Positions 2,427 to 11,908 of a DNA stretch of 13,610 nt are shown here, one piece after another. Source of the stretch: Alkalimonas sp. (GTDB taxonomy: Bacteria > Pseudomonadota > Gammaproteobacteria > Enterobacterales > Alteromonadaceae); NCBI GenBank assembly GCA_022565655.1, contig JAIUMG010000052.1, forward strand, positions 1-13,610, written 5' to 3'. The position numbers and the translations under genes were made by a program. The notes beneath the pieces were generated by a model. It saw only the letters and a program-made list of their open reading frames with translations. It ran no database searches and was not told the origin of the DNA. Within the stretch, counting starts at the first letter, position 1. Each line of letters opens with the position of its first letter.

Positions 2427-3128
2427 TTAAATCAGCGTGACCCAGTCGGGCAGGTACTCAATGGCCCAGGCCTCCATGACTTTATCGAAGCCGGTGAAGA
2501 TCATCAGTGCGATTAGCAATAATGCATAACCAAGCAGCAGGCGACCCACTTTGCCCGAGGTGCGCAGTGTATTGAGTTTAGTGCCGGCGGCGTAACCAAT
2601 CCCCACCAGGGGCAAGGCGGTGCCTAAGCCAAAGGCCAGCATTACGGTAAACGACATCAGCATATTCTGGCCGGTGGATGCCAGTGCAATGGCAGCGCCG
2701 AGCGTAGGGCCTACACAAGGCAGCCACACCAGCCCTAGCGAACCACCAATGACAAACTGAAAGGCCGGGCTATCTGAGGACTCAGTGACCTGGCCGCCAG
2801 CAGGCACCCGGCTGGTGAGCCGAGATAACAGCATGGTGAATTGCTGATTTAACCAGCCCACCACTAACACTAACCCCATCAGCAGCATAAATACCGCGGC
2901 TACGCTGCGCATGATATCTGGCGATAAGCCAGCGCTTAGCAGCAGGTAGGTCAGCAATGAACCACCCAGCGCAAAGGTGAGGGCTAAGCCACCGGCCAAA
3001 AACCAGACACCGGTTTTTGAGGCCCGCATCGCAGATGCTGTGACCGCCGGGATCATAGGAAGTACACAGGGCGATAGCAGGCTAAGCACACCGGCAATCA
3101 AGGCCAATGGAATGGCTGTAAATTCCAT
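2427..3128 (-). CDS. ccdA: CcdA/DsbD-family transmembrane thiol:disulfide electron transporter (cytochrome c biogenesis protein CcdA family)
   Basis: A polytopic membrane protein with the two hallmark Cys motifs of the family: LSPCVLPMIP near the N-terminus and WLPCVGPTLG mid-protein. ATG is at 3126-3128, only 5 nt after the upstream thioredoxin stop. Confidence 0.8.
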   Translation of the reverse strand: MEFTAIPLALIAGVLSLLSPCVLPMIPAVTASAMRASKTGVWFLAGGLALTFALGGSLLTYLLLSAGLSPDIMRSVAAVFMLLMGLVLVVGWLNQQFTMLLSRLTSRVPAGGQVTESSDSPAFQFVIGGSLGLVWLPCVGPTLGAAIALASTGQNMLMSFTVMLAFGLGTALPLVGIGYAAGTKLNTLRTSGKVGRLLLGYALLLIALMIFTGFDKVMEAWAIEYLPDWVTLI

Positions 3129-3133
3129 GGCAG

Positions 3134-3565
3134 TTACTCAGCTGCCGGGTCGTGTTTTTTCAGCTCGGCAAAGATCGTTCTCTGGCGAGTCTGAGCCACA
3201 CTAAACCACAGCTGCTCTTCACCACGATACAGCGCTAAGGTCGATTGACGCGGGGCTTTAAAGTAGGTGACCCAGTCTTTTTGCTGATCATAATCAACTT
3301 CCAACACTAATAAATCACTGTCCGGGTACTGAGCAAAATAATCATTTAACACATTCTGCTGGCGTCGGCAGGTTGGGCACCAGGTGGCATACACATCGAT
3401 GAGCACCAGTTTATTGTCAGCTTGAGCTTGACGAAATACGTCTTCACTGAAGGGTTGTTTGTGCTTATCTAAATGCTCGGTGGATGCATTGGCTGGTGTC
3501 AAAAAGAAAAATGCGGCGGCGGCTACAGCAATAACTGCAAGAGATACAGTGGTGGTAATTTTCAT
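3134..3565 (-). CDS. Periplasmic thioredoxin-fold protein (TlpA/thioredoxin-like, WCPTC active site)
   Basis: N-terminal signal peptide or anchor (MKITTTVSLAVIAVAAAAFFFLTPANA), then VLIDVYATWCPTCRRQ, a CxxC thioredoxin motif. GAGG Shine-Dalgarno lies 5 nt upstream of ATG 3565. It forms an operon with ccdA. Confidence 0.8.
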   Translation of the reverse strand: MKITTTVSLAVIAVAAAAFFFLTPANASTEHLDKHKQPFSEDVFRQAQADNKLVLIDVYATWCPTCRRQQNVLNDYFAQYPDSDLLVLEVDYDQQKDWVTYFKAPRQSTLALYRGEEQLWFSVAQTRQRTIFAELKKHDPAAE

Positions 3566-3665: not shown

Positions 3666-4595
3666 CTATGCCTGGCTGGCGCGATACTCGCCAGGTGAGA
3701 GTTGTTCACGTTGTTTGAAAAAACGGATAAAGGCGGTGGCGGATTGGTATCCCACCTGCTCGGCAATCAACTCCAGACTCAGTTCAGAATGGATCAGTAG
3801 ATAGCGGGCGCGTTGCAGTCGAATTTCATCCAGCAGGGCTTTGGCTGTCATGTCCATGACTTTGTGGCAACGCTCGGCAAAGGCACTTTTGGACAAAAAT
3901 GCCATCGCCGCCATGCTCTCTACCGTCCAGTCGGCAGCGGGGTCATCCATAATCGCCAGTACTACTTTACGTAAGGTGCTGTCTTTTAACGCCGCCAGTA
4001 AGCCATGGTTGACGCCATCATCACTCAGAACTTGCCGCAGCAAATGCAGCACCACCACATCGCTGAGCCGGCTAATCGCAGCCTGATAACCAGGTTGGCG
4101 CTCTGTGGCTTCCTGCTGAATGATTTGAATGAGTGGCTGCAAGCGGCTGGACTGCCGCTCTGCGGGTAAGTGAATATAGTCTGGCATTACGTGAAACAAA
4201 TTCGCCGTCAGCGGTGACTCGATCTGAATATCGTAACAAACCAAGCCTCGCTCTATATGTTCCGGCACGCAAAACGTCGGGAAGTCCACCTCTCGGGTTT
4301 GCTCTGACACCGGCTGATCACTTAGCCAATGGCGGAAACTGTGGCTAAAAAAAATAGCATCGCCGGGCTGCAGCTGCACCTGCTCATGCAAACGGCCGGG
4401 GATTGCCATCCAAACCGTGCCACGGGTCACAACATGCAAGGCCGCCTTGCTGGATTTACTGGTGAGTAAATTCCAATCATCACAGAAGCCAGACTCGAAA
4501 TGCAATTCAGAGCCGAAAGCCAGCTGAGCCAACAGTTGATCTAAGGCAGAGGTTGTTTCAGTCGATTGAGCAGGTGTTTTGGTCATTGTTGCCAT
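3666..4595 (-). CDS. AraC-family transcriptional regulator with N-terminal cupin-type sensor domain
   Basis: The C-terminal double HTH signature is LSKSAFAERCHKVMDMTAKALLDEIRLQRARYLL...ELIAEQVGYQSATAFIRFFKQREQLSPGEYR. The N-terminal half is cupin-like (LHVVTRGTVWMAIPG...LQPGDAIFFSHSFRHWL). It is transcribed divergently from the 4675-9258 operon. Confidence 0.85.
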   Translation of the reverse strand: MATMTKTPAQSTETTSALDQLLAQLAFGSELHFESGFCDDWNLLTSKSSKAALHVVTRGTVWMAIPGRLHEQVQLQPGDAIFFSHSFRHWLSDQPVSEQTREVDFPTFCVPEHIERGLVCYDIQIESPLTANLFHVMPDYIHLPAERQSSRLQPLIQIIQQEATERQPGYQAAISRLSDVVVLHLLRQVLSDDGVNHGLLAALKDSTLRKVVLAIMDDPAADWTVESMAAMAFLSKSAFAERCHKVMDMTAKALLDEIRLQRARYLLIHSELSLELIAEQVGYQSATAFIRFFKQREQLSPGEYRASQA

Positions 4596-4674
4596 TGGGT
4601 TAAGTGGCTAAGGTATTTAAGCATACCAGTCTAAGTTGTTTCTTAGGCTTTGCAACCCTAAATAAGGATATACG
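4596..4674. promoter_or_regulatory. Divergent control region between the AraC gene and the operon; candidate AraC operator repeats
   Basis: This 79-bp gap must hold both promoters. It contains GGTAT-N6-ATACC (4612-4627) and CTAAG-N6-CTTAG (4631-4646). There is also a direct CTAAG copy at 4608-4612, 23 nt upstream of the one at 4631. AAGGA Shine-Dalgarno is at 4664-4668. I could not assign convincing -35/-10 hexamers. Confidence 0.35.
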
Positions 4675-5124
4675 ATGTCACATATTTTACTTGCCCGGCC
4701 CCATCCATTTATTGTCAGTGAGATGGCGCCTTTTCTGCAGGATCAAGGCCATTCGTTCAGTAAGCTCACTCAGTTGGATGCTTTAAACGAGCAGTTGTCG
4801 CAAGCAAAAGCGGCCGTAATTTCATTGGCGTTATCGTCGCCACTCGCCCACACAGCCGAAGAGGTGGTTACTGCGATTCGGCAGAAAAATGCGCGCTTGC
4901 CTTTGGTTTTTGCCAGTTTATTGCCATTGGATCGGGTGCAGAAAAATATTCTGCAACTGTTGGAACAACATCATCCTGCCGCATCGGTGGTGTCAGCGAC
5001 TTCGACGCTAGGGAGTGGCCGCCCAGGCCAGCCAGATACCGCTTTGTATTTTTCGAAAGATGACCTGAATAACCCTGATAGTCGGCGACAATTTGCCCAG
5101 TTACTCAAGCAACATGCATTGTAA
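4675..5124 (+). CDS. Hypothetical 149-aa protein; possible degenerate receiver-like (flavodoxin-like alpha/beta) domain
   Basis: Good Shine-Dalgarno (AAGGA, 6-nt spacing). I recognise no family motif. The alternating hydrophobic strand and amphipathic helix pattern (HILLAR / AAVISLAL / LPLVFASL / ASVVSAT) lines up with CheY-like topology. The acidic pocket and the phospho-Asp are absent. Confidence 0.6.
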   Translation: MSHILLARPHPFIVSEMAPFLQDQGHSFSKLTQLDALNEQLSQAKAAVISLALSSPLAHTAEEVVTAIRQKNARLPLVFASLLPLDRVQKNILQLLEQHHPAASVVSATSTLGSGRPGQPDTALYFSKDDLNNPDSRRQFAQLLKQHAL

Positions 5125-5150
5125 TCATCCAAAAATTTAGGAGCACAGTC

Positions 5151-6074
5151 ATGCTTAAGTGGTTTCAGCAGTTTCAACCGAGTCAGCACGGTACAACGAA
5201 TGCTGAACAACTCAGCAAAGATCTGCTGTCCAGCTTGATGGTGATGGCGTGGTTTGTGGAAGCCAAAGATCCCTATACCGGCGGCCATCTGTGGCGAGTG
5301 TCGCGTTATGCCAATGTTTTGGCCCGAGCCGGTAAATTACCGGAGGGCGATGTCGCCCGCATCACCTTAGGTGGCTTCTTACATGACTTAGGCAAGGTGG
5401 CCATTCCTGATGCGGTCTTGAATAAAACCGGCAAGCTATCGGATAGCGAATACCGGGTGATTCAAACACACCCGCAAGCCGGGGGGCGGATGTTGGCCGG
5501 GCATCCACTGGGCCATTTGGTGGCTGCAGCAGTTGAGCTGCATCATGAACGACCCGATGGAAACGGTTATCCGCATGGGCTGGCGACCAGTATGATCCCG
5601 GTTGATGCGGCGATTGTTGGTATTTGTGATGCATTTGATGCCATGACCAGCCAGCGGCCCTACCGCAAACCGATGCCTTTAGACAAAGTGGTATCGATTT
5701 TCCGTCAGGAAATGGGCAGTCAATTCAATCAATTCTGGGGTGAGCTATTCCTGACTTTAGTTGAGCAAGGAAAGGTGGACAACATTATCGGACATAGTGA
5801 TGAAGGTATTCCCTTGCACACTTGTCCACATTGCGGACCGACGGTGGTGCAACACAGTGATGACCAAATAGGGGATCATCTGCACTGCCGAGTCTGTCAT
5901 AGTGAAATGGAATTATGCACTGAGCATGATAAGGTGACGGTGAAGCCTACAGGTAAAAAAGGCAATGCAGCCGAGATGCAACCTAAAGCCGACAACCTAT
6001 TGATTAAAAAGTTAATTGAGCAGTCCATTGCCCATATTCCTCTGCAACAACTCATGAAGCTGCCTGGCGTATGA
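5151..6074 (+). CDS. HD-GYP domain c-di-GMP phosphodiesterase with C-terminal CxxC...CxxC zinc-ribbon extension
   Basis: FLHDLGKVAIPDAVLNK (HD at 5382-5387) and HHERPDGNGYPHGL (GYP at 5565-5573) are the canonical HD-GYP motifs. CPHC (5823-5834) and CRVC (5886-5897) form a zinc-ribbon-like pair. AGGAG Shine-Dalgarno lies 7 nt upstream of ATG 5151. Confidence 0.85.
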   Translation: MLKWFQQFQPSQHGTTNAEQLSKDLLSSLMVMAWFVEAKDPYTGGHLWRVSRYANVLARAGKLPEGDVARITLGGFLHDLGKVAIPDAVLNKTGKLSDSEYRVIQTHPQAGGRMLAGHPLGHLVAAAVELHHERPDGNGYPHGLATSMIPVDAAIVGICDAFDAMTSQRPYRKPMPLDKVVSIFRQEMGSQFNQFWGELFLTLVEQGKVDNIIGHSDEGIPLHTCPHCGPTVVQHSDDQIGDHLHCRVCHSEMELCTEHDKVTVKPTGKKGNAAEMQPKADNLLIKKLIEQSIAHIPLQQLMKLPGV

Positions 6075-6313
6075 GCTTGTTACTAAGGCAGTTCTTTCAT
6101 GCTGATGTCATGAAAACTGCGCTTTATGTTGCTATCGTGGTTAGCAGTATCCTGAACCTCATCAACCAGTTCGATGCTCTGTTTGGTGAGGCATGCTGGC
6201 GCTGGGGAATGGCAGGCCTCAATTATTTAGTGCCCTATTGTGTTGCCAGTTACAGCGGTGCTTCGCAGCGAGTAAAACAACGATTATCGACGTTAAAGGA
6301 TTCAGAAACATGA
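6071..6313 (+). CDS. NrtS-like small integral membrane protein (annotated family: nitrate/nitrite transporter NrtS)
   Basis: An 80-aa protein with two hydrophobic segments. The pattern TALYVAIVVSSILNLINQFDALFG....NYLVPYCVASYS resembles the NrtS family consensus as I remember it (..vVG.iLnlINqgDal... VPYcVs). The start ATG overlaps the HD-GYP stop as ATGA (6071-6074). Confidence 0.55.
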   Translation: MSLLLRQFFHADVMKTALYVAIVVSSILNLINQFDALFGEACWRWGMAGLNYLVPYCVASYSGASQRVKQRLSTLKDSET

Positions 6314-6801
6314 ATGTGATTGCTCAAAACCTACAGCAACTTGGTTATTTGCGCAGTATTTTGCAACTAGTGAGTCTGGAGCATTATCAACACTGTTTAG
6401 CCTGGCCTGGTGAGCCCTCTATCGGCAAGCACAGCCGGCATGTGCTCGATCATTATCAACAATTGTGGCTGGCCTCTGAAAGCAAACAACTGGATTATCG
6501 CTTACGGTTACGGGATCTGGGGGCTCAGACAGAGCCCTCTATTGCCTTGCAGTGGATTGACCGCTTAGAAACCTGGCTACACTGCCTTGAGCTATCTGAG
6601 CTTGATAGGCAGCTGCAATATCAGTTTGATGGCGGTGCTACCTACACCAGCCTGCAACGCGAATTAGACTTTGTCTGCAGTCATACCGTGCACCACTTAG
6701 CGTTGATCAATGGAATTTTGCTGCAGCTCGATTACCCCATGCAGCCGCACCTTGGCCTGCACAGTTCTACGTTGGAGTATTTGCAACAATGTGCACCCTG
6801 A
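6310..6801 (+). CDS. DinB/YfiT-superfamily (four-helix-bundle, His-triad) protein
   Basis: GKHSRHVLDHY near the N-terminus and CSHTVHHLALING near the C-terminus look like the DinB_2-type metal-binding histidines, and the ~163-aa size is typical. Start set to ATG 6310 rather than the track's 6193. ATG 6310 overlaps the NrtS stop as ATGA (6310-6313) and has AAGGA 9 nt upstream. Confidence 0.55.
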   Translation: MNVIAQNLQQLGYLRSILQLVSLEHYQHCLAWPGEPSIGKHSRHVLDHYQQLWLASESKQLDYRLRLRDLGAQTEPSIALQWIDRLETWLHCLELSELDRQLQYQFDGGATYTSLQRELDFVCSHTVHHLALINGILLQLDYPMQPHLGLHSSTLEYLQQCAP

Positions 6802-8393
6802 GCTGGCAGTATCACGACCGTCAGCTCAAGCTGGTTTTTAATCGTGATGAACAAAGAGCACGCGCTGCGGCTCAGCCTCCTGAGTTGTACCAGCAAGATG
6901 GTGTGCAGGCCATGATGCCACTGGACCCAGCAGGTGGCGGCAGTTGGTTGGCCGCGAATGAAGATGGTTTTGTGGTGTGCTTACTGAATGATTATACGTC
7001 CAGTTTCCAACCTGCAGAAGATGAACGACAAAGTCGTGGGCTTTTGGTAAGACAATTAGCCCACTGTCGTAGTTGGTTGGAACTGGATTCATGGTTGCAA
7101 CCCGAGCTTATGCAGCGCTATGCCCCCTTTAAACTGTTGATTTTCTATCAGCAGCAAGAACCTTTGTTGTGGCACTGGAATGGCAACCACTTGCAACAAA
7201 GCCTGGCGGTTCGCTCACCGGTCTCTAGCTCTAGTGCGATGCCCCGTTTGATCCCAAGGCTGCGCGAACGCCGGATCCAGCGGTTGATGTCGGCCCCGAT
7301 TGATGCATCCACGCATCTGGCTCTGCATCGGCAGGCAAAGCCTTTGCATCGCTTTTTTGGCATCGCCATGCAGCGAGAAAAAGTACAGACCGTCAGCATC
7401 ACGATGGTCAACTGGCAGAGCAACCATATCGAGATGACGTATTGGGGTGGGCACCCGGCAAGGCACCAAGCCACTACAGATCGCCGTTTGACCTTGCCAC
7501 TGGTTTCAACACCTGAGCAAGGTGCTGATGGTTTTGCTACTCGGCTGGATGTGCGCGATTTAATGCAGCGCTTTAGCCCGGCAGTTAGCCGGCGCTTAAC
7601 AGGGTGGCAGTGGTCGTTGCTGCGCTGGTTATTGGCAGAAAAACCGTTAAATCAGGGGCTGCAATGGTTGAATCAACAACCGGCTGAACGCTTTTGCGAC
7701 ATCGCTTTGCAACGGCTCGGCTTGCAGCCTCATGTCGTCGCCTGTCGCTGGCCAGCATCAGCCACCCGGCCCGTTTTTGTCTGCAATCATCCCACCGGTG
7801 GCATTGATGGCTTAGTGCTGATCAGTATATTGAAAAAGCGCTATCCAGATCTAAAAGTCATTGCCAACGAGGTGCTGTCGGAAGTGCAGCAGTTGGCAGA
7901 TTGCATTGTGCCGGTATCGGTGTTTGGTAATGTTCGGGCATCCTTACCACGGGTGCAAGCTGCCTTTGCCAGTGATGCACCTTTGCTGATTTTCCCGGCG
8001 GGGCGAACGGCAAGAGCAGAGCCAAAGCTGGGGCTGGATGATGGACCTTGGGCGAAATTAGCTGTGACTCTGGCGCGCCGCGAGCAACGCAGCATGACGG
8101 TTTTGCACCTGCAAAGCCGAAATTCATGGGGGTTTTACCTGCTGGCACGATTACGACGTTGGTTGGGGATCAGTACCAACCTGGAGATGCTGCTGTTGGT
8201 GCGAGAAATGCTGAAACCGGCGATGAAACAGCCCAGGCTTTATGTTGATGTACCCATGCACCCGTTGGAGTTAACGGCGTTAGCCGATACGGATCGGCAA
8301 CGTATCAGCTGGTTAAAACGCCGATGCTACCAATTACCCCGAGTGTATCAGGAGGAACCCAATGCGACCGTTAAACCCAGTTGCAGCCGCTGA
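6789..8393 (+). CDS. Fusion protein: N-terminal NRDE-family (TANGO2-like, Ntn-hydrolase-fold) domain plus C-terminal lysophospholipid/OlsA-like acyltransferase domain
   Basis: One uninterrupted 534-codon frame. Residues 1 to ~238 start with MCT and carry FNRDE (NRDE at 6840-6851), the family signature. Residues ~251-534 carry VFVCNHPTGGIDGL (His at 7788-7790) and LLIFPAGRTAR (7992-8009), which are PlsC-superfamily catalytic blocks. No Shine-Dalgarno or obvious start is visible at the domain junction (7500-7565). It overlaps the upstream gene by 13 nt. Confidence 0.75.
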   Translation: MCTLSWQYHDRQLKLVFNRDEQRARAAAQPPELYQQDGVQAMMPLDPAGGGSWLAANEDGFVVCLLNDYTSSFQPAEDERQSRGLLVRQLAHCRSWLELDSWLQPELMQRYAPFKLLIFYQQQEPLLWHWNGNHLQQSLAVRSPVSSSSAMPRLIPRLRERRIQRLMSAPIDASTHLALHRQAKPLHRFFGIAMQREKVQTVSITMVNWQSNHIEMTYWGGHPARHQATTDRRLTLPLVSTPEQGADGFATRLDVRDLMQRFSPAVSRRLTGWQWSLLRWLLAEKPLNQGLQWLNQQPAERFCDIALQRLGLQPHVVACRWPASATRPVFVCNHPTGGIDGLVLISILKKRYPDLKVIANEVLSEVQQLADCIVPVSVFGNVRASLPRVQAAFASDAPLLIFPAGRTARAEPKLGLDDGPWAKLAVTLARREQRSMTVLHLQSRNSWGFYLLARLRRWLGISTNLEMLLLVREMLKPAMKQPRLYVDVPMHPLELTALADTDRQRISWLKRRCYQLPRVYQEEPNATVKPSCSR

Positions 8394-9258
8394 GCCAACT
8401 GATTGCATTCAGCAAGAGCTAGCCGCCTTAACGCCCATCGCCGAAGTGCGTGGCTTGCAAGTTTTTCGTGCCCAGGCCAGCCAGATCCCATCCACCTTGC
8501 TGGAGATTGGCCGCATACGTGAGCAAGTGTTTCGCGATGCTGGGGCCGGGCGCAACCTGGAGCGCGACCTGGATGCGCTGGATTATGGCGATGCAGCCTA
8601 CCATCAATTGATTGTATGGGATCCTCAGCGCCGCGAGTTGGTGGCTTTGTATCGTTATCAACTCGGCTGGCTGGCTGCACAACACGGTGTATCGATTTTA
8701 CGAACCAGCCAACTGTTTGATTACAGCCAGGCTTTTCAGCAGCAGGTGTTGCCTTACGGCATCGAGCTTGGGCGCTCCGTAGTGAACCAGCAGGCAAAAG
8801 GCCGAGCATTGGGTTTTTTTGCGCTCTGGGCCGGGCTTGGAGCTTTAGCCCGCCTGTATCCGCAGCTGCGCTATTTTTTCGGCAATGTCTCGTTGTATCA
8901 GGGCCTGGGGCAAGCCGGTATCGACTGTATGGTGCAGTTCTGCCAGCAGCTTTATCTGCCCCCTGAACCCATGATGCTGGCAAAAGCAGGGTTAAGTTTT
9001 GAGCCCAGACGGCAGCTGGAGACCGCATCGCTTATTGACGAAACGTCAGCTGTACGAATCAAGCACCTGCAACAGTACCTGAAATCGCTGGGTTGCCGTT
9101 TGCCGCCTATTTTGCAGTCCTACCTGGGAGTAGGCAATGCCATCTGGTTTGACGATGCGGCGCTGGATAACGACTTTGGTCAAGCTTATGAGCTCAGCAT
9201 CATGGTGCCATTGACTGCTGTCAGTGGTGCCATTCGGCAGCGGTTTATTGATTTATAA
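8362..9258 (+). CDS. OlsB-like GNAT N-acyltransferase (PF13444-type, lyso-aminolipid / N-acyl amino acid synthase family)
   Basis: LLEIGRIREQVFRDAGAG....ERDLDALDYGDAAYHQLIVWDPQRRELVALYRY matches the N-terminal signature I recall for OlsB/hemolysin-like GNATs. A perfect AGGAGG (8350-8355) lies 6 nt before ATG 8362, inside the end of the upstream gene (32-nt overlap). It is adjacent to the cognate-type acyltransferase. Confidence 0.7.
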   Translation: MRPLNPVAAAEPTDCIQQELAALTPIAEVRGLQVFRAQASQIPSTLLEIGRIREQVFRDAGAGRNLERDLDALDYGDAAYHQLIVWDPQRRELVALYRYQLGWLAAQHGVSILRTSQLFDYSQAFQQQVLPYGIELGRSVVNQQAKGRALGFFALWAGLGALARLYPQLRYFFGNVSLYQGLGQAGIDCMVQFCQQLYLPPEPMMLAKAGLSFEPRRQLETASLIDETSAVRIKHLQQYLKSLGCRLPPILQSYLGVGNAIWFDDAALDNDFGQAYELSIMVPLTAVSGAIRQRFIDL

Positions 9259-9280
9259 CACGCAAAGGAGTACTAAAAAG

Positions 9281-9886
9281 CTAGCCTTTCTCTTTTGGGG
9301 TAGAGCTGCCTAAACCACCGCTCAGCACCAGCTGCAAGGCTTCTGCAGGTTTCATATCGATGTTTTTGGTGCAGCTTTGCGGCACGATGATCGTATAGCC
9401 GCCCACGTTGTAGGCCATCGGGATAAACACCGCCAGCTGTGCTTCACCCATCAAAGACGACATGCGGTCGCCTTCAATGCCGCCTTTTTTGGTGACAATA
9501 CCAATCAACTCAATTTCCGTGCCTGGCAGTTTCACCATCACCACAGAGCCATCGGAAAAGCTTTTACCGGACATCACATCGATTAAATCTTGCAGCATGC
9601 CGTAAATTTGTTTGGTGCCCGGCAGCTTTAACAGCAACCGGCCTGGCAGCTGCCACAACCAGTCAAAGCTTCGCCAGCGGGCACTGAATCCAATGACAAC
9701 ACACAGCAGGAAAAAAGCCGCGATCGCCATGCCCGGCCAATACCACTTGGCAGGCAGAACCAACTCCAGCACTGGTGCCAGCCAGGACTCAACCGTGATC
9801 AGCAACCAACGAATCAGCTCTATGGTAATAACGATGGGCAGAATAATGGCAAGGCCTTTGGCCAGGCTTTTGGCGATAATTTTCAT
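9281..9886 (-). CDS. DUF502-family integral membrane protein
   Basis: Two N-terminal TM helices (GLAIILPIVITIELIRWLL, WPGMAIAAFFLLCVVIGF) followed by LPGTKQIYGMLQDLIDVM are typical of DUF502. Start moved to ATG 9884-9886 (MKIIAKSL) with AGGA upstream. The track's 9934 start adds a non-hydrophobic 16-aa extension. Confidence 0.7.
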   Translation of the reverse strand: MKIIAKSLAKGLAIILPIVITIELIRWLLITVESWLAPVLELVLPAKWYWPGMAIAAFFLLCVVIGFSARWRSFDWLWQLPGRLLLKLPGTKQIYGMLQDLIDVMSGKSFSDGSVVMVKLPGTEIELIGIVTKKGGIEGDRMSSLMGEAQLAVFIPMAYNVGGYTIIVPQSCTKNIDMKPAEALQLVLSGGLGSSTPKEKG

Positions 9887-10038
9887 GAGGTTTCCTAGCG
9901 GTTCACTGTGTTCGATGCTCGTGCAGCGCGGCAACGCAACTCATCATAAAGAAATAATCGCTTGATAGCCATGAGTTTGGTAGTTGGTTGACGACACTGT
10001 AGAGAGGCGACAGGTGATGCTAGTGGAGATACGATAAA

Positions 10039-10115
10039 TGGTGGCCCCTCCCAGACTCGAACTGGGGACCTAACGATTATGAGTCGTGTGCTCTAACCAA
10101 CTGAGCTAAGGGGCC
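10039..10115 (-). tRNA. ileX: tRNA with CAU anticodon, most likely tRNA-Ile2 (lysidine-modified, ileX-type) rather than elongator tRNA-Met
   Basis: The reverse complement GGCCCCTTAGCTCAGTTGGTTAGAGCACACGACTCATAATCGTTAGGTCCCCAGTTCGAGTCTGGGAGGGGCCACCA folds into a clean 77-nt cloverleaf: 7-bp acceptor, GCTC/GAGC D stem, CTCATAA loop, CCCAG/CTGGG T stem, encoded CCA. The acceptor GGCCCCU and the C29-G41 pair match E. coli ileX as I recall it, not metT. Confidence 0.9.
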
Positions 10116-10371: not shown

Positions 10372-11481
10372 ATGTCGCATCGTAAGTGTTTTTTATTTCC
10401 TGCTTTAATACTCGCCATGCCGGTCGCCGCAGTTGATATGCAGTACAGTGGCTTTCTAACCATAGGTGCTGGCACCATCATTGATAGCAAGGGGCCTGGT
10501 TATGACTATGAAGGGTTTGATTGTCCTTGCTTTGTTTCTGATTTCAATACGGCAGGGTTCTATGAACGTGGTGAAATTGGTTGGAAGCAGGATAGTCGCT
10601 TAGGTTTACAGGCGACGGCTCGCTTTCGTCCTGGACTGTCGCTGACGGCTCAGGGGGTCGCCCGTGGCGTAGACTCCAGCCTTAATCTGGAGTGGCTGTA
10701 TTTAAGCTATGATCTGACTGATGAGCTGACCTTGCAAGTGGGGCGAAAGCGGATCCCTCTGTATTACTACTCTGATTTTCAGGATGTAGGCTTGGCGTAT
10801 ATTTGGGCTCGTCCAACACAAGCACTTTACGGTTGGGAGGCCAGCAATTACAACGGTGCTAGTGTTCGTTATGCTACTTACTCCGGGCGCTGGGAAATTC
10901 AGAGCAGCCTTTTTGCCGGTAGAGAAACCGTTAAAAAGTCTGGTTTCGCACGAATCTATGATGAGGTTGCCCAAGATATTCGTTGGAAAAATATCATCGG
11001 TGCTGATCTTGAAGTAACCAGAGACTGGTTTACAGCGCGAGTGGTGTACTTGCAGTCAGATAACTCTATTACTGATAAGCCAGATGATACAGAGTTTCTT
11101 AGCCCTTCGGATAAACAGCAGGTATTTGGTTTAGCGTTGAATGCTGATTTCGGTGATTGGCTGATTTTGTCTGAGTTTAATACCAATACCCGGGAAAGCC
11201 GTGAAGATGGTTTGAAAGTACCGGCACCGGCCATGAGTGTTGGGGTTGGACGTCGGATTGGTGCCTGGACACCTTTTATTAACTACGCTCGTTTTTGGGA
11301 AAAAGCCAAAGATGATGAGTATGAAAATGAGCGCTTCATTGATGTGTCGGCTACCTTACGTTATGACCTGACCTCATCGAGTGCTTTTAAGGTTCAGATT
11401 AATCGTTTCTCAGATCGTTCTCAGTTCGAATTTGTTGGGTATACAACCTTGCTCAGCGCAAATTACAACTTGGTGTTCTGA
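10372..11481 (+). CDS. Outer-membrane beta-barrel protein (putative porin), family not identified
   Basis: Signal peptide (MSHRKCFLFPALILAMPVAA). The sequence has alternating aromatic/hydrophilic beta-strand periodicity throughout and a C-terminal ...LSANYNLVF ending in Phe, the typical OMP signature. AAGGG Shine-Dalgarno lies 7 nt upstream. Confidence 0.7.
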   Translation: MSHRKCFLFPALILAMPVAAVDMQYSGFLTIGAGTIIDSKGPGYDYEGFDCPCFVSDFNTAGFYERGEIGWKQDSRLGLQATARFRPGLSLTAQGVARGVDSSLNLEWLYLSYDLTDELTLQVGRKRIPLYYYSDFQDVGLAYIWARPTQALYGWEASNYNGASVRYATYSGRWEIQSSLFAGRETVKKSGFARIYDEVAQDIRWKNIIGADLEVTRDWFTARVVYLQSDNSITDKPDDTEFLSPSDKQQVFGLALNADFGDWLILSEFNTNTRESREDGLKVPAPAMSVGVGRRIGAWTPFINYARFWEKAKDDEYENERFIDVSATLRYDLTSSSAFKVQINRFSDRSQFEFVGYTTLLSANYNLVF

Positions 11482-11497
11482 TAAAAAGCAGGAGTAG

Positions 11498-11908
11498 ATG
11501 ATGATGAAAGCACTATGTTTGGTTCTGTTTGTTGTGTTGCAAGCTGCTGCTTATGCTGATATTGCCGTGATCGTACATCCATCACAAGGTATCACTATCA
11601 GTCAGGATGATATCAACCGGGTATTTATGGGACGCGCTGGAGACATTGCGGGCGAAACCTTTATCCCCATTAATCTGGTTGATTCTCACCCCGCAAAAGC
11701 GCAGTTTGATCAAAATGTATTGGGACGCTCGTCAAGCCAGGTGAAAGCATACTGGTCCAGGTTAGTATTTACTGGTAAGGGGTCACCGCCAAAAGAAGTG
11801 AGCTCGGAAACCGAAGTCATGGCCTTGGTTGCCAAAAATCCTAATATTATTGGTTATGTGCCACTAGACTTGGTCGATGACTCGGTCCGAGTCGTCGCAA
11901 CATTTTAA
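11498..11908 (+). CDS. Secreted half-size PstS-like / type-2 periplasmic-binding-fold protein
   Basis: Signal peptide MMMKALCLVLFVVLQAAAYA followed by DIAVIVHPSQ. The blocks ISQDDINRVFMGR, YWSRLVFTGKG and NPNIIGYVP resemble the short proteins usually auto-annotated as phosphate ABC transporter substrate-binding protein. Three tandem ATGs occur at 11498, 11501 and 11504. AGGAG at 11490-11494 favours 11501 or 11504 as the true start. Confidence 0.65.
   Translation: MMMKALCLVLFVVLQAAAYADIAVIVHPSQGITISQDDINRVFMGRAGDIAGETFIPINLVDSHPAKAQFDQNVLGRSSSQVKAYWSRLVFTGKGSPPKEVSSETEVMALVAKNPNIIGYVPLDLVDDSVRVVATF

Follow-up and report, generated by a model that had tools for sequence, protein, structure and literature searches.

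The NRDE-acyltransferase fusion gene

We describe a gene on a 13,610-nucleotide stretch of DNA from Alkalimonas sp. (GenBank assembly GCA_022565655.1, contig JAIUMG010000052.1), hereafter the window, in which a domain of the NRDE/TANGO2 family is joined in frame to an O-acyltransferase domain related to those of bacterial aminolipid synthesis, the pathway to phosphorus-free membrane lipids built on amino acids. The gene is the fourth of five translationally coupled genes, which encode an HD-GYP protein, an NrtS-like protein, a DinB-like protein, the fusion and an N-acyltransferase. The fusion, its parts and the gene that follows it are laid out as follows:

6789..8393, + strand: NRDE-O-acyltransferase fusion gene, 534 amino acids (Pfam, NCBIfam, homologues, fold model)
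6789..7493, + strand: NRDE/TANGO2 domain, amino acids 1-235 (PF05742), with Cys2 at 6792-6794 and NRDE at 6840-6851
7494..7574, + strand: interdomain linker, amino acids 236-262, poorly conserved and the block of lowest internal model confidence
7575..8336, + strand: OlsF-N/GlsA-type lyso-aminolipid O-acyltransferase domain, amino acids 263-516 (PF19576), with NHPTGGID at 7785-7808 and FPAGRT at 7992-8009
8362..9258, + strand: GlsB/OlsF-C-type amino acid N-acyltransferase, 298 amino acids (PF13444, E 1.8e-11)

Translation of 6789..8393 gave 534 codons with no internal stop, in line with the original prediction, which had been made from the letters of the window alone. The stop-to-stop frame of this open reading frame (ORF) opens at 6630 and, as the ATG at 6789 is the earliest ATG, GTG or TTG past the upstream in-frame stop, the product must begin with Met-Cys. 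NCBI lists the exact protein as 'MAG: NRDE family protein [Alkalimonas sp.]'. An AlphaFold2 model of the entire chain, with a predicted local distance difference test score (pLDDT) of 94.8 and a predicted template-modelling score (pTM) of 0.93, suggests a defined two-domain body. The linker that had been placed at about residues 239-250 corresponds to the sequence STPEQGADGF (about amino acids 240-249), which is both the least conserved stretch and, with a pLDDT of 87, the one of lowest internal confidence. Between close relatives the N-terminal half diverges faster than the C-terminal half (57% against 89% identity). At deep divergence the two domains are level at about 36-42% identity and the linker drops to 8-23%; because both domains hold their identity at depth while the linker does not, we conclude that purifying selection acts on both halves and not on the linker.

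We also considered whether the single long frame could be an assembly or sequencing artefact uniting two separate genes, a worry that the original prediction had itself raised. In favour of an artefact, the window is a 13.6-kb contig of a metagenome-assembled genome (MAG), and some database entries (P0016 and P0017) show the acyltransferase part alone. Against this, isolate genomes and dozens of independent assemblies carry the fusion at 33-73% identity, the short entries are mis-called starts of intact 536-amino-acid ORFs, and the two-domain model is confident throughout. The recurrence across many independent genomes excludes the artefact, to which we assign a negligible probability, and the fusion is a genuine two-domain gene.

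The N-terminal half matches the Pfam family TANGO2 (PF05742) over amino acids 1-198 with an E value of 6.5e-12 and 46.6 bits, against a gathering score of 22.6. This profile match, together with the predicted fold, confirms the earlier placement of residues 1-240 in the NRDE family. The N-terminus reads MCTLSW and FNRDE occupies amino acids 17-21, so that the Met-Cys-Thr start and the NRDE codons at 6840-6851 (AAT CGT GAT GAA, amino acids 18-21) stand exactly where they had been read. We aligned 33 fused and stand-alone relatives that share 24-47% identity with the window protein, and found M1, C2, T3, R19, D20, E21, R25, N67, S82, R83, G84 and R159 to be invariant, as are M194, R196 and T201-V202-S203. 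A sequence search of the PDB with the full fusion protein gave no match, and a profile of the clade was needed to reach human TANGO2 (8sv7, E 3e-6). In the resulting profile alignment N18-E21 correspond to N25-E28 of the human protein, R25 to R32, N67 to N75, and R83-G84 to R88-G89. In the human crystal structure, Cys2, Asn25, Arg26, Asp27 and Asn75 have been proposed for an active site with cysteine as the N-terminal nucleophile (Ntn), Cys2 is the first visible residue, a sulfate is bound near the site by Arg32 and Arg88, and the G89C substitution is pathogenic (PMC13044924).

The predicted structure of this half has a four-layer alpha-beta-beta-alpha fold. Compared with the PDB by Foldseek, it best matched human TANGO2 (8sv7, 9bwa) and the bacterial NRDE protein CV2077 (3gvz), with E values of 1e-9 to 3e-8, followed by acyl-CoA:isopenicillin-N acyltransferase and then by bile-salt hydrolases and penicillin V acylase, with 2x1d among the matches. 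The comparison with Ntn hydrolases that had been suggested thus did return bile-salt hydrolase and penicillin V acylase, after TANGO2. Like TANGO2 and CV2077, the fusion has Met-Cys, the NRDE, LLN and SRG motifs and the four-layer fold; it differs in that those proteins are single-domain, whereas the window domain is fused and linked to a DinB-like gene, and identity in the structural alignments is 14-16%. With bile-salt hydrolase, penicillin V acylase and isopenicillin-N acyltransferase it shares the predicted fold, and its conserved C2, R19-D20 and N67 are candidates for the N-terminal Cys and the Arg, Asp and Asn partners of those enzymes. It differs from these cysteine Ntn enzymes in having no sequence-level membership of their families and in a Cys that would be exposed by removal of Met rather than by autoproteolysis of a propeptide. 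In about 40 loci, all intact NRDE halves start exactly at M-C-T at the extreme N-terminus. NRDE is always the N-terminal partner in the fusion, the very arrangement that would be called for by a nucleophile dependent on a free alpha-amino group of its own.

The C-terminal half matches Acyltransf_2 (PF19576) over amino acids 263-516 with an E value of 2.3e-27 and 96 bits, against a cut-off of 27, and its model best resembles the plant glycerol-3-phosphate acyltransferase structure 1k30 (Foldseek). It carries NHPTGGID at amino acids 333-340 (H334 to D340, an H-X5-D spacing) and FPAGRT at amino acids 402-407, and H334, D340, F402, G405, T407 and N464-E466-M467 are invariant in 20 homologues. Both blocks and the spacing had been noted before, and their presence stands. 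The suggestion that H-X5-D is a special variant of the fusion protein does not: the spacing occurs in 82 of 88 related loci, OlsF-type relatives included, and is the family norm, so that we rejected it as a distinguishing feature. Amino acids 253-516 align to the NCBIfam model for GlsA, the lyso-glycine-lipid O-acyltransferase, with 148.3 bits, which is below the equivalog cut-off of 260, and this half is on these scores a GlsA homologue, not a demonstrable GlsA orthologue. The OlsF equivalog cut-off of 620 is likewise not reached, the N-terminal half of the OlsF model scoring 117 bits on the fusion and its C-terminal half 155 bits on the next ORF.

That next ORF, which had been recognised as an N-acyltransferase, matches PF13444 and scores 175.6 bits with NCBIfam GlsB, under the equivalog cut-off; it lies downstream of the fusion in nearly all gammaproteobacterial loci. 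By homology, it belongs with the enzymes that put a 3-hydroxy fatty acid on the nitrogen of an amino acid, and the fusion's C-terminal half with those that esterify a second fatty acid onto the 3-hydroxyl, the step of GlsA or of the OlsF N-terminal domain. The window shares the PF19576 and PF13444 families and the NHPTGGxDG and FPAGRT blocks with OlsF and with GlsA/GlsB of Bacteroides glycine lipids, and it shares the order of OlsF, O-acyltransferase first and N-acyltransferase second. Whereas OlsF is a single polypeptide, the two activities of the window lie in separate ORFs, in different frames, with a 32-nucleotide overlap. In contrast to both GlsA and OlsF, the O-acyltransferase bears an extra 235-amino-acid N-terminal NRDE domain and has a DinB-like gene ahead of it. 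The C-terminal tail of the fusion (8362-8393, ...VKPSCSR) is coded inside the overlap, just after the AGGAGG of the N-acyltransferase. PSCSRR is conserved at the tail of gammaproteobacterial homologues and the tail is disordered in the model (pLDDT below 50). The sequence is probably kept because the next gene and its ribosome-binding site overlap it, and not because the tail itself has a function.

Distribution of the fusion

About 40 genomes carry the fusion, isolates included, down to about 33% identity. A word-indexed search returned 27 clusters with both Pfam domains and one with a degenerate N-terminal half, at 31-73% identity. In a scan of one genome per species, the carriers include four Alkalimonas species, Arsukibacterium ikkense and Arsukibacterium MAGs, three Alishewanella species and Salinispirillum marinum, as well as MAGs of Rheinheimera, Aliidiomarina, Idiomarina, Saccharospirillum, Natronospirillum and many Balneolales/Cyclonatronaceae; among them are isolates of Alkalimonas, Arsukibacterium, Alishewanella and Salinispirillum.

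Public gene calls begin too late in P0015, P0016 and P0017 (L006:4663-6273), hiding the NRDE half or the Met-Cys start, and counts of the fusion in domain-architecture databases are therefore underestimates. We had taken P0016 and P0017 as candidate 'acyltransferase-only' relatives, which would make the fusion optional, and rejected them: the Aliidiomarina ORF (locus L006) is intact, with 536 amino acids and an MCTLSW start.

A group of Balneolales and soda-lake loci (L024, L026-L029, L096 and L098-L100) have an intact fusion with neither an N-acyltransferase nor a DinB-like gene in the available flanks. We found no OlsH-like GH3 partner in the fetched flanks of the Balneolales fusion loci that have no adjacent N-acyltransferase. 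In such genomes the N-acyl amino acid has to come from an enzyme that is encoded elsewhere or is of another type.

The habitats of the carriers are strongly skewed to soda lakes and other alkaline sites, from which most of them come (loci L008-L039 and L093-L101). Examples are the Cock Soda Lake 'CSSed' MAGs, the 'SL_*KL' sediment and brine contigs, Alkalimonas, Natronospirillum, Cyclonatronaceae and Arsukibacterium ikkense. This bias hints that the fusion helps to adapt the membrane to high pH.

Operon partners and stand-alone NRDE genes

Three genes precede the fusion in the coupled run:

5151..6074, + strand: HD-GYP-type (HD_5) protein, first of the run (Pfam HD_5, E 1.7e-30)
6071..6313, + strand: NrtS-like small protein, 80 amino acids (NCBIfam NF038050, 34.7 bits against a cut-off of 25)
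6310..6801, + strand: DinB/YfiT-fold protein (DinBL), 163 amino acids (Pfam DinB_2, 26.7 bits against a cut-off of 24.8)

The NrtS-like ORF is ATGA-coupled on both sides, the overlap of the HD-GYP stop with its start being the ATGA at 6071-6074. DinBL overlaps the start of the fusion by 13 nucleotides, with a GGAG upstream of the fusion, and the fusion in turn overlaps the N-acyltransferase by 32 nucleotides, the AGGAGG of the latter lying at 8350-8355. A promoter and terminator scan of 4500-10100 gave nothing above shuffled expectation.

No partner of this NRDE clade is more constant than DinBL, which the original prediction had left unremarked. NCBI annotates the same 163-amino-acid product. 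Its model (pLDDT 86) is a predicted four-helix bundle whose best matches are YjoA (3dka), YfiT (1rxq) and DR0053, with BstA lower. DinBL precedes the fusion in all gammaproteobacterial loci with an intact fusion and in some Cyclonatronaceae; homologues stand upstream of the fusion in distant lineages, with His residues that are invariant across lineages. We consider DinBL a putative metalloprotein with the conserved His as candidate ligands.

The association extends to NRDE genes of the same clade that are not fused, the nearest of which encode proteins with 32-36% identity to the N-terminal half of the fusion. In 5 of 5 sampled loci the stand-alone NRDE gene has DinBL directly upstream. We then sampled the 80 metagenome loci most similar to the N-terminal half (L093-L172; search alignment of 12 sequences), a sample that is partly redundant and biased toward this clade, so that its counts are descriptive and carry no test. 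Of the 70 loci that allowed an assessment, 55 have DinBL directly upstream of NRDE. The flanks extend at least 3 kb to either side in 32 loci, of which 20 have an ATP-grasp gene, 7 an OlsF-type gene and 25 one or the other, and a gene for a membrane VTT/DedA-ATP-grasp protein is present in 39 of the 80 loci overall. OlsF genes cluster with DinBL-NRDE in Spartinivicinus ruber, in contig L089 and in an Opitutales MAG (loci L082, L088 and L089), and these clusters also hold the VTT/DedA-ATP-grasp protein, sometimes fused to an alpha/beta-hydrolase. Its gene lies beside DinBL-NRDE at the following positions:

L082:3712-5442: VTT/DedA-ATP-grasp gene
L089:7756-10335: VTT/DedA-ATP-grasp gene
L088:4398-6130: VTT/DedA-ATP-grasp gene
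L091:5293-6333: VTT/DedA-ATP-grasp gene

VTT/DedA and ATP-grasp are sometimes separate genes and often adjoin OlsF. No ATP-grasp gene was found near any NRDE-acyltransferase fusion locus, the window included, and there appear to be two sub-architectures, one with the ATP-grasp gene and one with the fusion. In one Phycisphaerales contig (L092:3866-7765), genes for an alpha/beta-hydrolase, an OlsH-like GH3 protein, DinBL and a stand-alone NRDE protein follow each other in a row. The sole NCBIfam match of the GH3 gene is OlsH (347 bits, below the equivalog cut-off), and this single case would be a third kind of aminolipid synthase tied to the DinBL-NRDE pair. OlsH is the lyso-ornithine-lipid synthetase of a third, GH3-dependent pathway, and the paper on planctomycete OlsH/OlsI makes no mention of NRDE or DinB genes (PMC12493201); the window, unlike the Phycisphaerales contig, has no such gene. 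Collectively, the cassette of the window is a variant of a wider, undescribed neighbourhood in which DinB-like and NRDE genes, with or without VTT/DedA-ATP-grasp, lie beside aminolipid synthases. The earlier argument that the fusion speaks for an acyl-lipid role of NRDE is strengthened, as stand-alone NRDE genes also adjoin OlsF-type and OlsH-like synthase genes.

In one metagenome protein, P0186 (415 amino acids, a single cluster), DinBL and NRDE are called as a single chain; a true fusion of this kind would run counter to the argument from an N-terminal Cys. We set it aside, as a frameshift or a merger of two gene calls is the probable cause: the C-terminus of its DinBL part is garbled and a GTG-encoded Val stands where Met1 is expected (Val-Cys). 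Should the protein exist as called, its Cys would have to be freed by autoproteolysis.

The ATP-grasp genes raise the possibility that DinBL and NRDE modify the head group of the finished aminolipid, for example by formation or trimming of amides on the carboxylate or side chain of the amino acid, and do not act on the acyl chains. The VTT/DedA-ATP-grasp protein, of the carboxylate-amine ligase fold, is the most frequent follower of stand-alone DinBL-NRDE and could be an ATP-dependent ligase on the carboxylate of the lipid head group. Thiol transferases are typical among DinB-fold enzymes, and an ATP-dependent transfer of taurine to ornithine lipid is known for which the gene is not (PMC12971839). 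Nevertheless, the absence of ATP-grasp genes from the fusion loci, the fusion of NRDE to the O-acyltransferase rather than to a head-group enzyme, and nearest structural relatives that act on N-acyl bonds all tell against head-group modification, which suits the stand-alone loci better than the locus of the window and which we regard as distinctly unlikely.

The C-terminal tail of the HD-GYP protein is rich in Cys (CPHCGP...CRVCHSEMELC). In Aliidiomarina (L006), too, the cassette has an HD_5 gene upstream, and in L005 there is a dCache-GAF-HD_5 gene nearby. The ATGA coupling of the genes at 5151-6313 suggests that genes related to cyclic di-GMP are co-transcribed with the lipid cassette. Downstream, the region 10372-11908 (+) of the window encodes a secreted 369-amino-acid protein (ending ...NYNLVF) and a secreted 136-amino-acid protein, neither with a Pfam match at E <= 0.01. 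They may be an outer-membrane porin and a small PstS-like binding protein, which they resemble and which would fit a context of phosphate limitation.

Thioredoxin and DsbD/CcdA-like genes occur near the cassette in the window and in Alishewanella, and in a Cyclonatronaceae MAG a thioredoxin gene is immediately upstream of the DinB-like gene (window 2427-3565 (-), L007:1482-2614 and L001:6822-7289). These neighbours may be chance synteny, or may connect thiol redox reactions with the Cys enzyme and with the DinB-fold protein.

Their presence within a few kilobases of the cassette, in the window and two related loci, also bears on a further explanation, that the NRDE half is a heme-binding or heme-trafficking module, trafficking being the role proposed for HtpA (SO0126) of Shewanella, in which case its fusion to a lipid enzyme would be regulatory or incidental. 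HtpA belongs to the same Pfam family as the N-terminal half of the fusion, both HtpA and human TANGO2 bind heme in vitro, and over-expression of HtpA raises the cytochrome c content (PMC10470608). Heme binding is, however, reported as non-specific in the TANGO2 crystal-structure study (PMC13044924). The context of HtpA also differs: it is a stand-alone protein encoded beside a metal transporter, with no reported link to aminolipid genes, whereas the present clade is tied to DinBL and aminolipid genes in several phyla and the operon has no cytochrome c maturation gene. We consider a heme function very improbable here.

A proposed role in aminolipid synthesis

The explanation that we favour, by a modest measure of confidence, is that the operon specifies an aminolipid synthase equipped with a probably catalytic cysteine Ntn accessory domain, which would act on the N-acyl-amino-acid intermediate or on the acyl donor. 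By homology, the pathway is one of acyloxyacyl aminolipids: the N-acyltransferase makes an N-(3-hydroxyacyl) amino acid, to whose hydroxyl a second acyl chain is esterified by the C-terminal half of the fusion. We read the NRDE half as a working Ntn enzyme because of the invariant set of Cys2, Arg, Asp and Asn, the obligatory N-terminal position and the nearest structural relatives. Methionine aminopeptidase, judging from its specificity, would expose Cys2, which would then attack an acyl-amide or acyl-thioester, with R19-D20, N67 and R159 acting as their counterparts do in bile-salt hydrolase and isopenicillin-N acyltransferase. The substrates of cysteine Ntn enzymes (N-acyl glycine and taurine, ceramide and N-acylethanolamine amides, acyl-CoA) chemically resemble the pathway intermediate and the acyl donor, and acid ceramidase and NAAA have been compared with TANGO2 (PMC13044924). 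Because NRDE is tethered to the O-acyltransferase, it would most likely meet the substrates of that enzyme, namely the N-acyl amino acid (the lyso-aminolipid) or the acyl-CoA or acyl carrier protein (ACP) donor. The DinB/YfiT-fold putative metalloprotein encoded upstream would work with this NRDE-acyltransferase module.

Two forms of this chemistry seem to us about equally likely. In the first, the NRDE half would be an amidase or transacylase on N-acyl amino acids that are unfit for O-acylation, and would serve in editing, turnover or exchange of the head group. In the second, the incoming second acyl group would be carried as an S-acyl-Cys2 intermediate and then handed on. The second form mirrors human TANGO2, which binds acyl-CoA through its NRDE pocket and on whose loss lysophospholipids accumulate (PMC11867700).

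Several points weigh against an active enzyme in this position. We know of no NRDE protein for which an enzymatic activity has been demonstrated. An amidase coded beside an amide-making enzyme looks futile unless it is selective. NCBIfam gives no assignment of the head-group amino acid, the GlsA, GlsB and OlsF scores all being below the equivalog cut-offs. R159 is a candidate counterpart of human Lys166; the residues aligned with the human protein are N18-E21, R25, N67 and R83-G84, and do not include those of Asn157 and Lys166. The hydrolase activity of TANGO2 is a proposal from structure alone (PMC13044924), and the human protein, purified or over-expressed, shows no lysophospholipid acyltransferase activity (PMC11867700). 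Finally, some lineages can dispense with the NRDE half. Five loci with an intact acyltransferase half (L033-L036 and L038) have lost Cys2 or the NRDE motif; in four of these, from Balneolales and Chitinophagales MAGs (L033, L034, L036 and L038), the decayed motifs read NRDD, NREI and NRDA, and MQVSW replaces MCTLSW. One Balneolales MAG (SLLP01) holds both an intact copy (L027) and a decayed one (L036). In the isolate Natronospirillum operosum G-116 (L037:4485-5945) the NRDE half is deleted altogether, leaving a 486-amino-acid DinBL-acyltransferase ORF, and in sister MAGs (L035 and L039) it is decaying or partly deleted. The ORF of N. operosum means, therefore, that all three proteins are found joined in varying combinations.

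The decayed copies are consistent in part with a non-catalytic NRDE half, kept as a scaffold after loss of Cys2 or the NRDE motif. By binding the lipid, or else acyl-CoA or acyl-ACP as the acyl donor, such a half would raise the local concentration of substrate for the O-acyltransferase. The purified human protein binds C16:0- and C18:1-CoA through the same pocket with no acyltransferase activity (PMC11867700), and the pTM of 0.93 suggests that the two domains are one rigid unit. Nevertheless, M1-C2-T3 and the Arg, Asp and Asn set are invariant down to 24% identity, which is more than binding needs, and the constant extreme N-terminal position is a constraint foreign to a binding module. We judge binding alone to be unlikely.

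Beyond the catalytic accessory domain that we favour for the window, we tentatively propose that DinB-like and NRDE proteins form an ancient accessory module for N-acyl-amino-acid lipids, possibly recruited by three unrelated kinds of synthase (split OlsF-type, OlsF and OlsH/GH3), with NRDE as a cysteine Ntn amidase or transacylase of N-acyl or acyl-thioester bonds in lipids, alongside an acyltransferase of the LPLAT (lysophospholipid acyltransferase) fold. If this were true, the fusion would be a 'Rosetta stone' for human TANGO2, pointing to acyl editing or hand-over to lysolipid acyltransferases, and would explain the build-up of lysophospholipids in TANGO2 deficiency.

We found no paper joining TANGO2/NRDE with aminolipids or DinB, within an incomplete coverage of the literature. 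The architecture had been thought undescribed, and we likewise found no publication on it, though public databases hold entries named 'NRDE family protein'. A 2026 review of aminolipids mentions neither such a domain nor a DinB protein, and it names a few modifying enzymes but none that degrades or edits these lipids (PMC12971839). A literature search for the polar lipids of Alkalimonas, Alishewanella and Arsukibacterium gave nothing usable.

Taken together, what is new here is an aminolipid operon of the OlsF/GlsBA type with an undescribed accessory domain and partner. The aminolipid pathways gain two unstudied components, the DinB-like and NRDE proteins, and in related loci the VTT/DedA-ATP-grasp protein too. 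In humans, deficiency of TANGO2 is a severe disorder of metabolism, and heme chaperone, acyl-CoA binder and Ntn hydrolase are among the functions proposed for the protein in a continuing dispute. The fusion and its neighbourhood in Pseudomonadota, Balneolota, Verrucomicrobiota and Planctomycetota provide independent evolutionary evidence for an acyl-lipid role, and the cultivable hosts Alishewanella, Alkalimonas, Arsukibacterium and Salinispirillum make the function of the TANGO2 family testable in bacteria.

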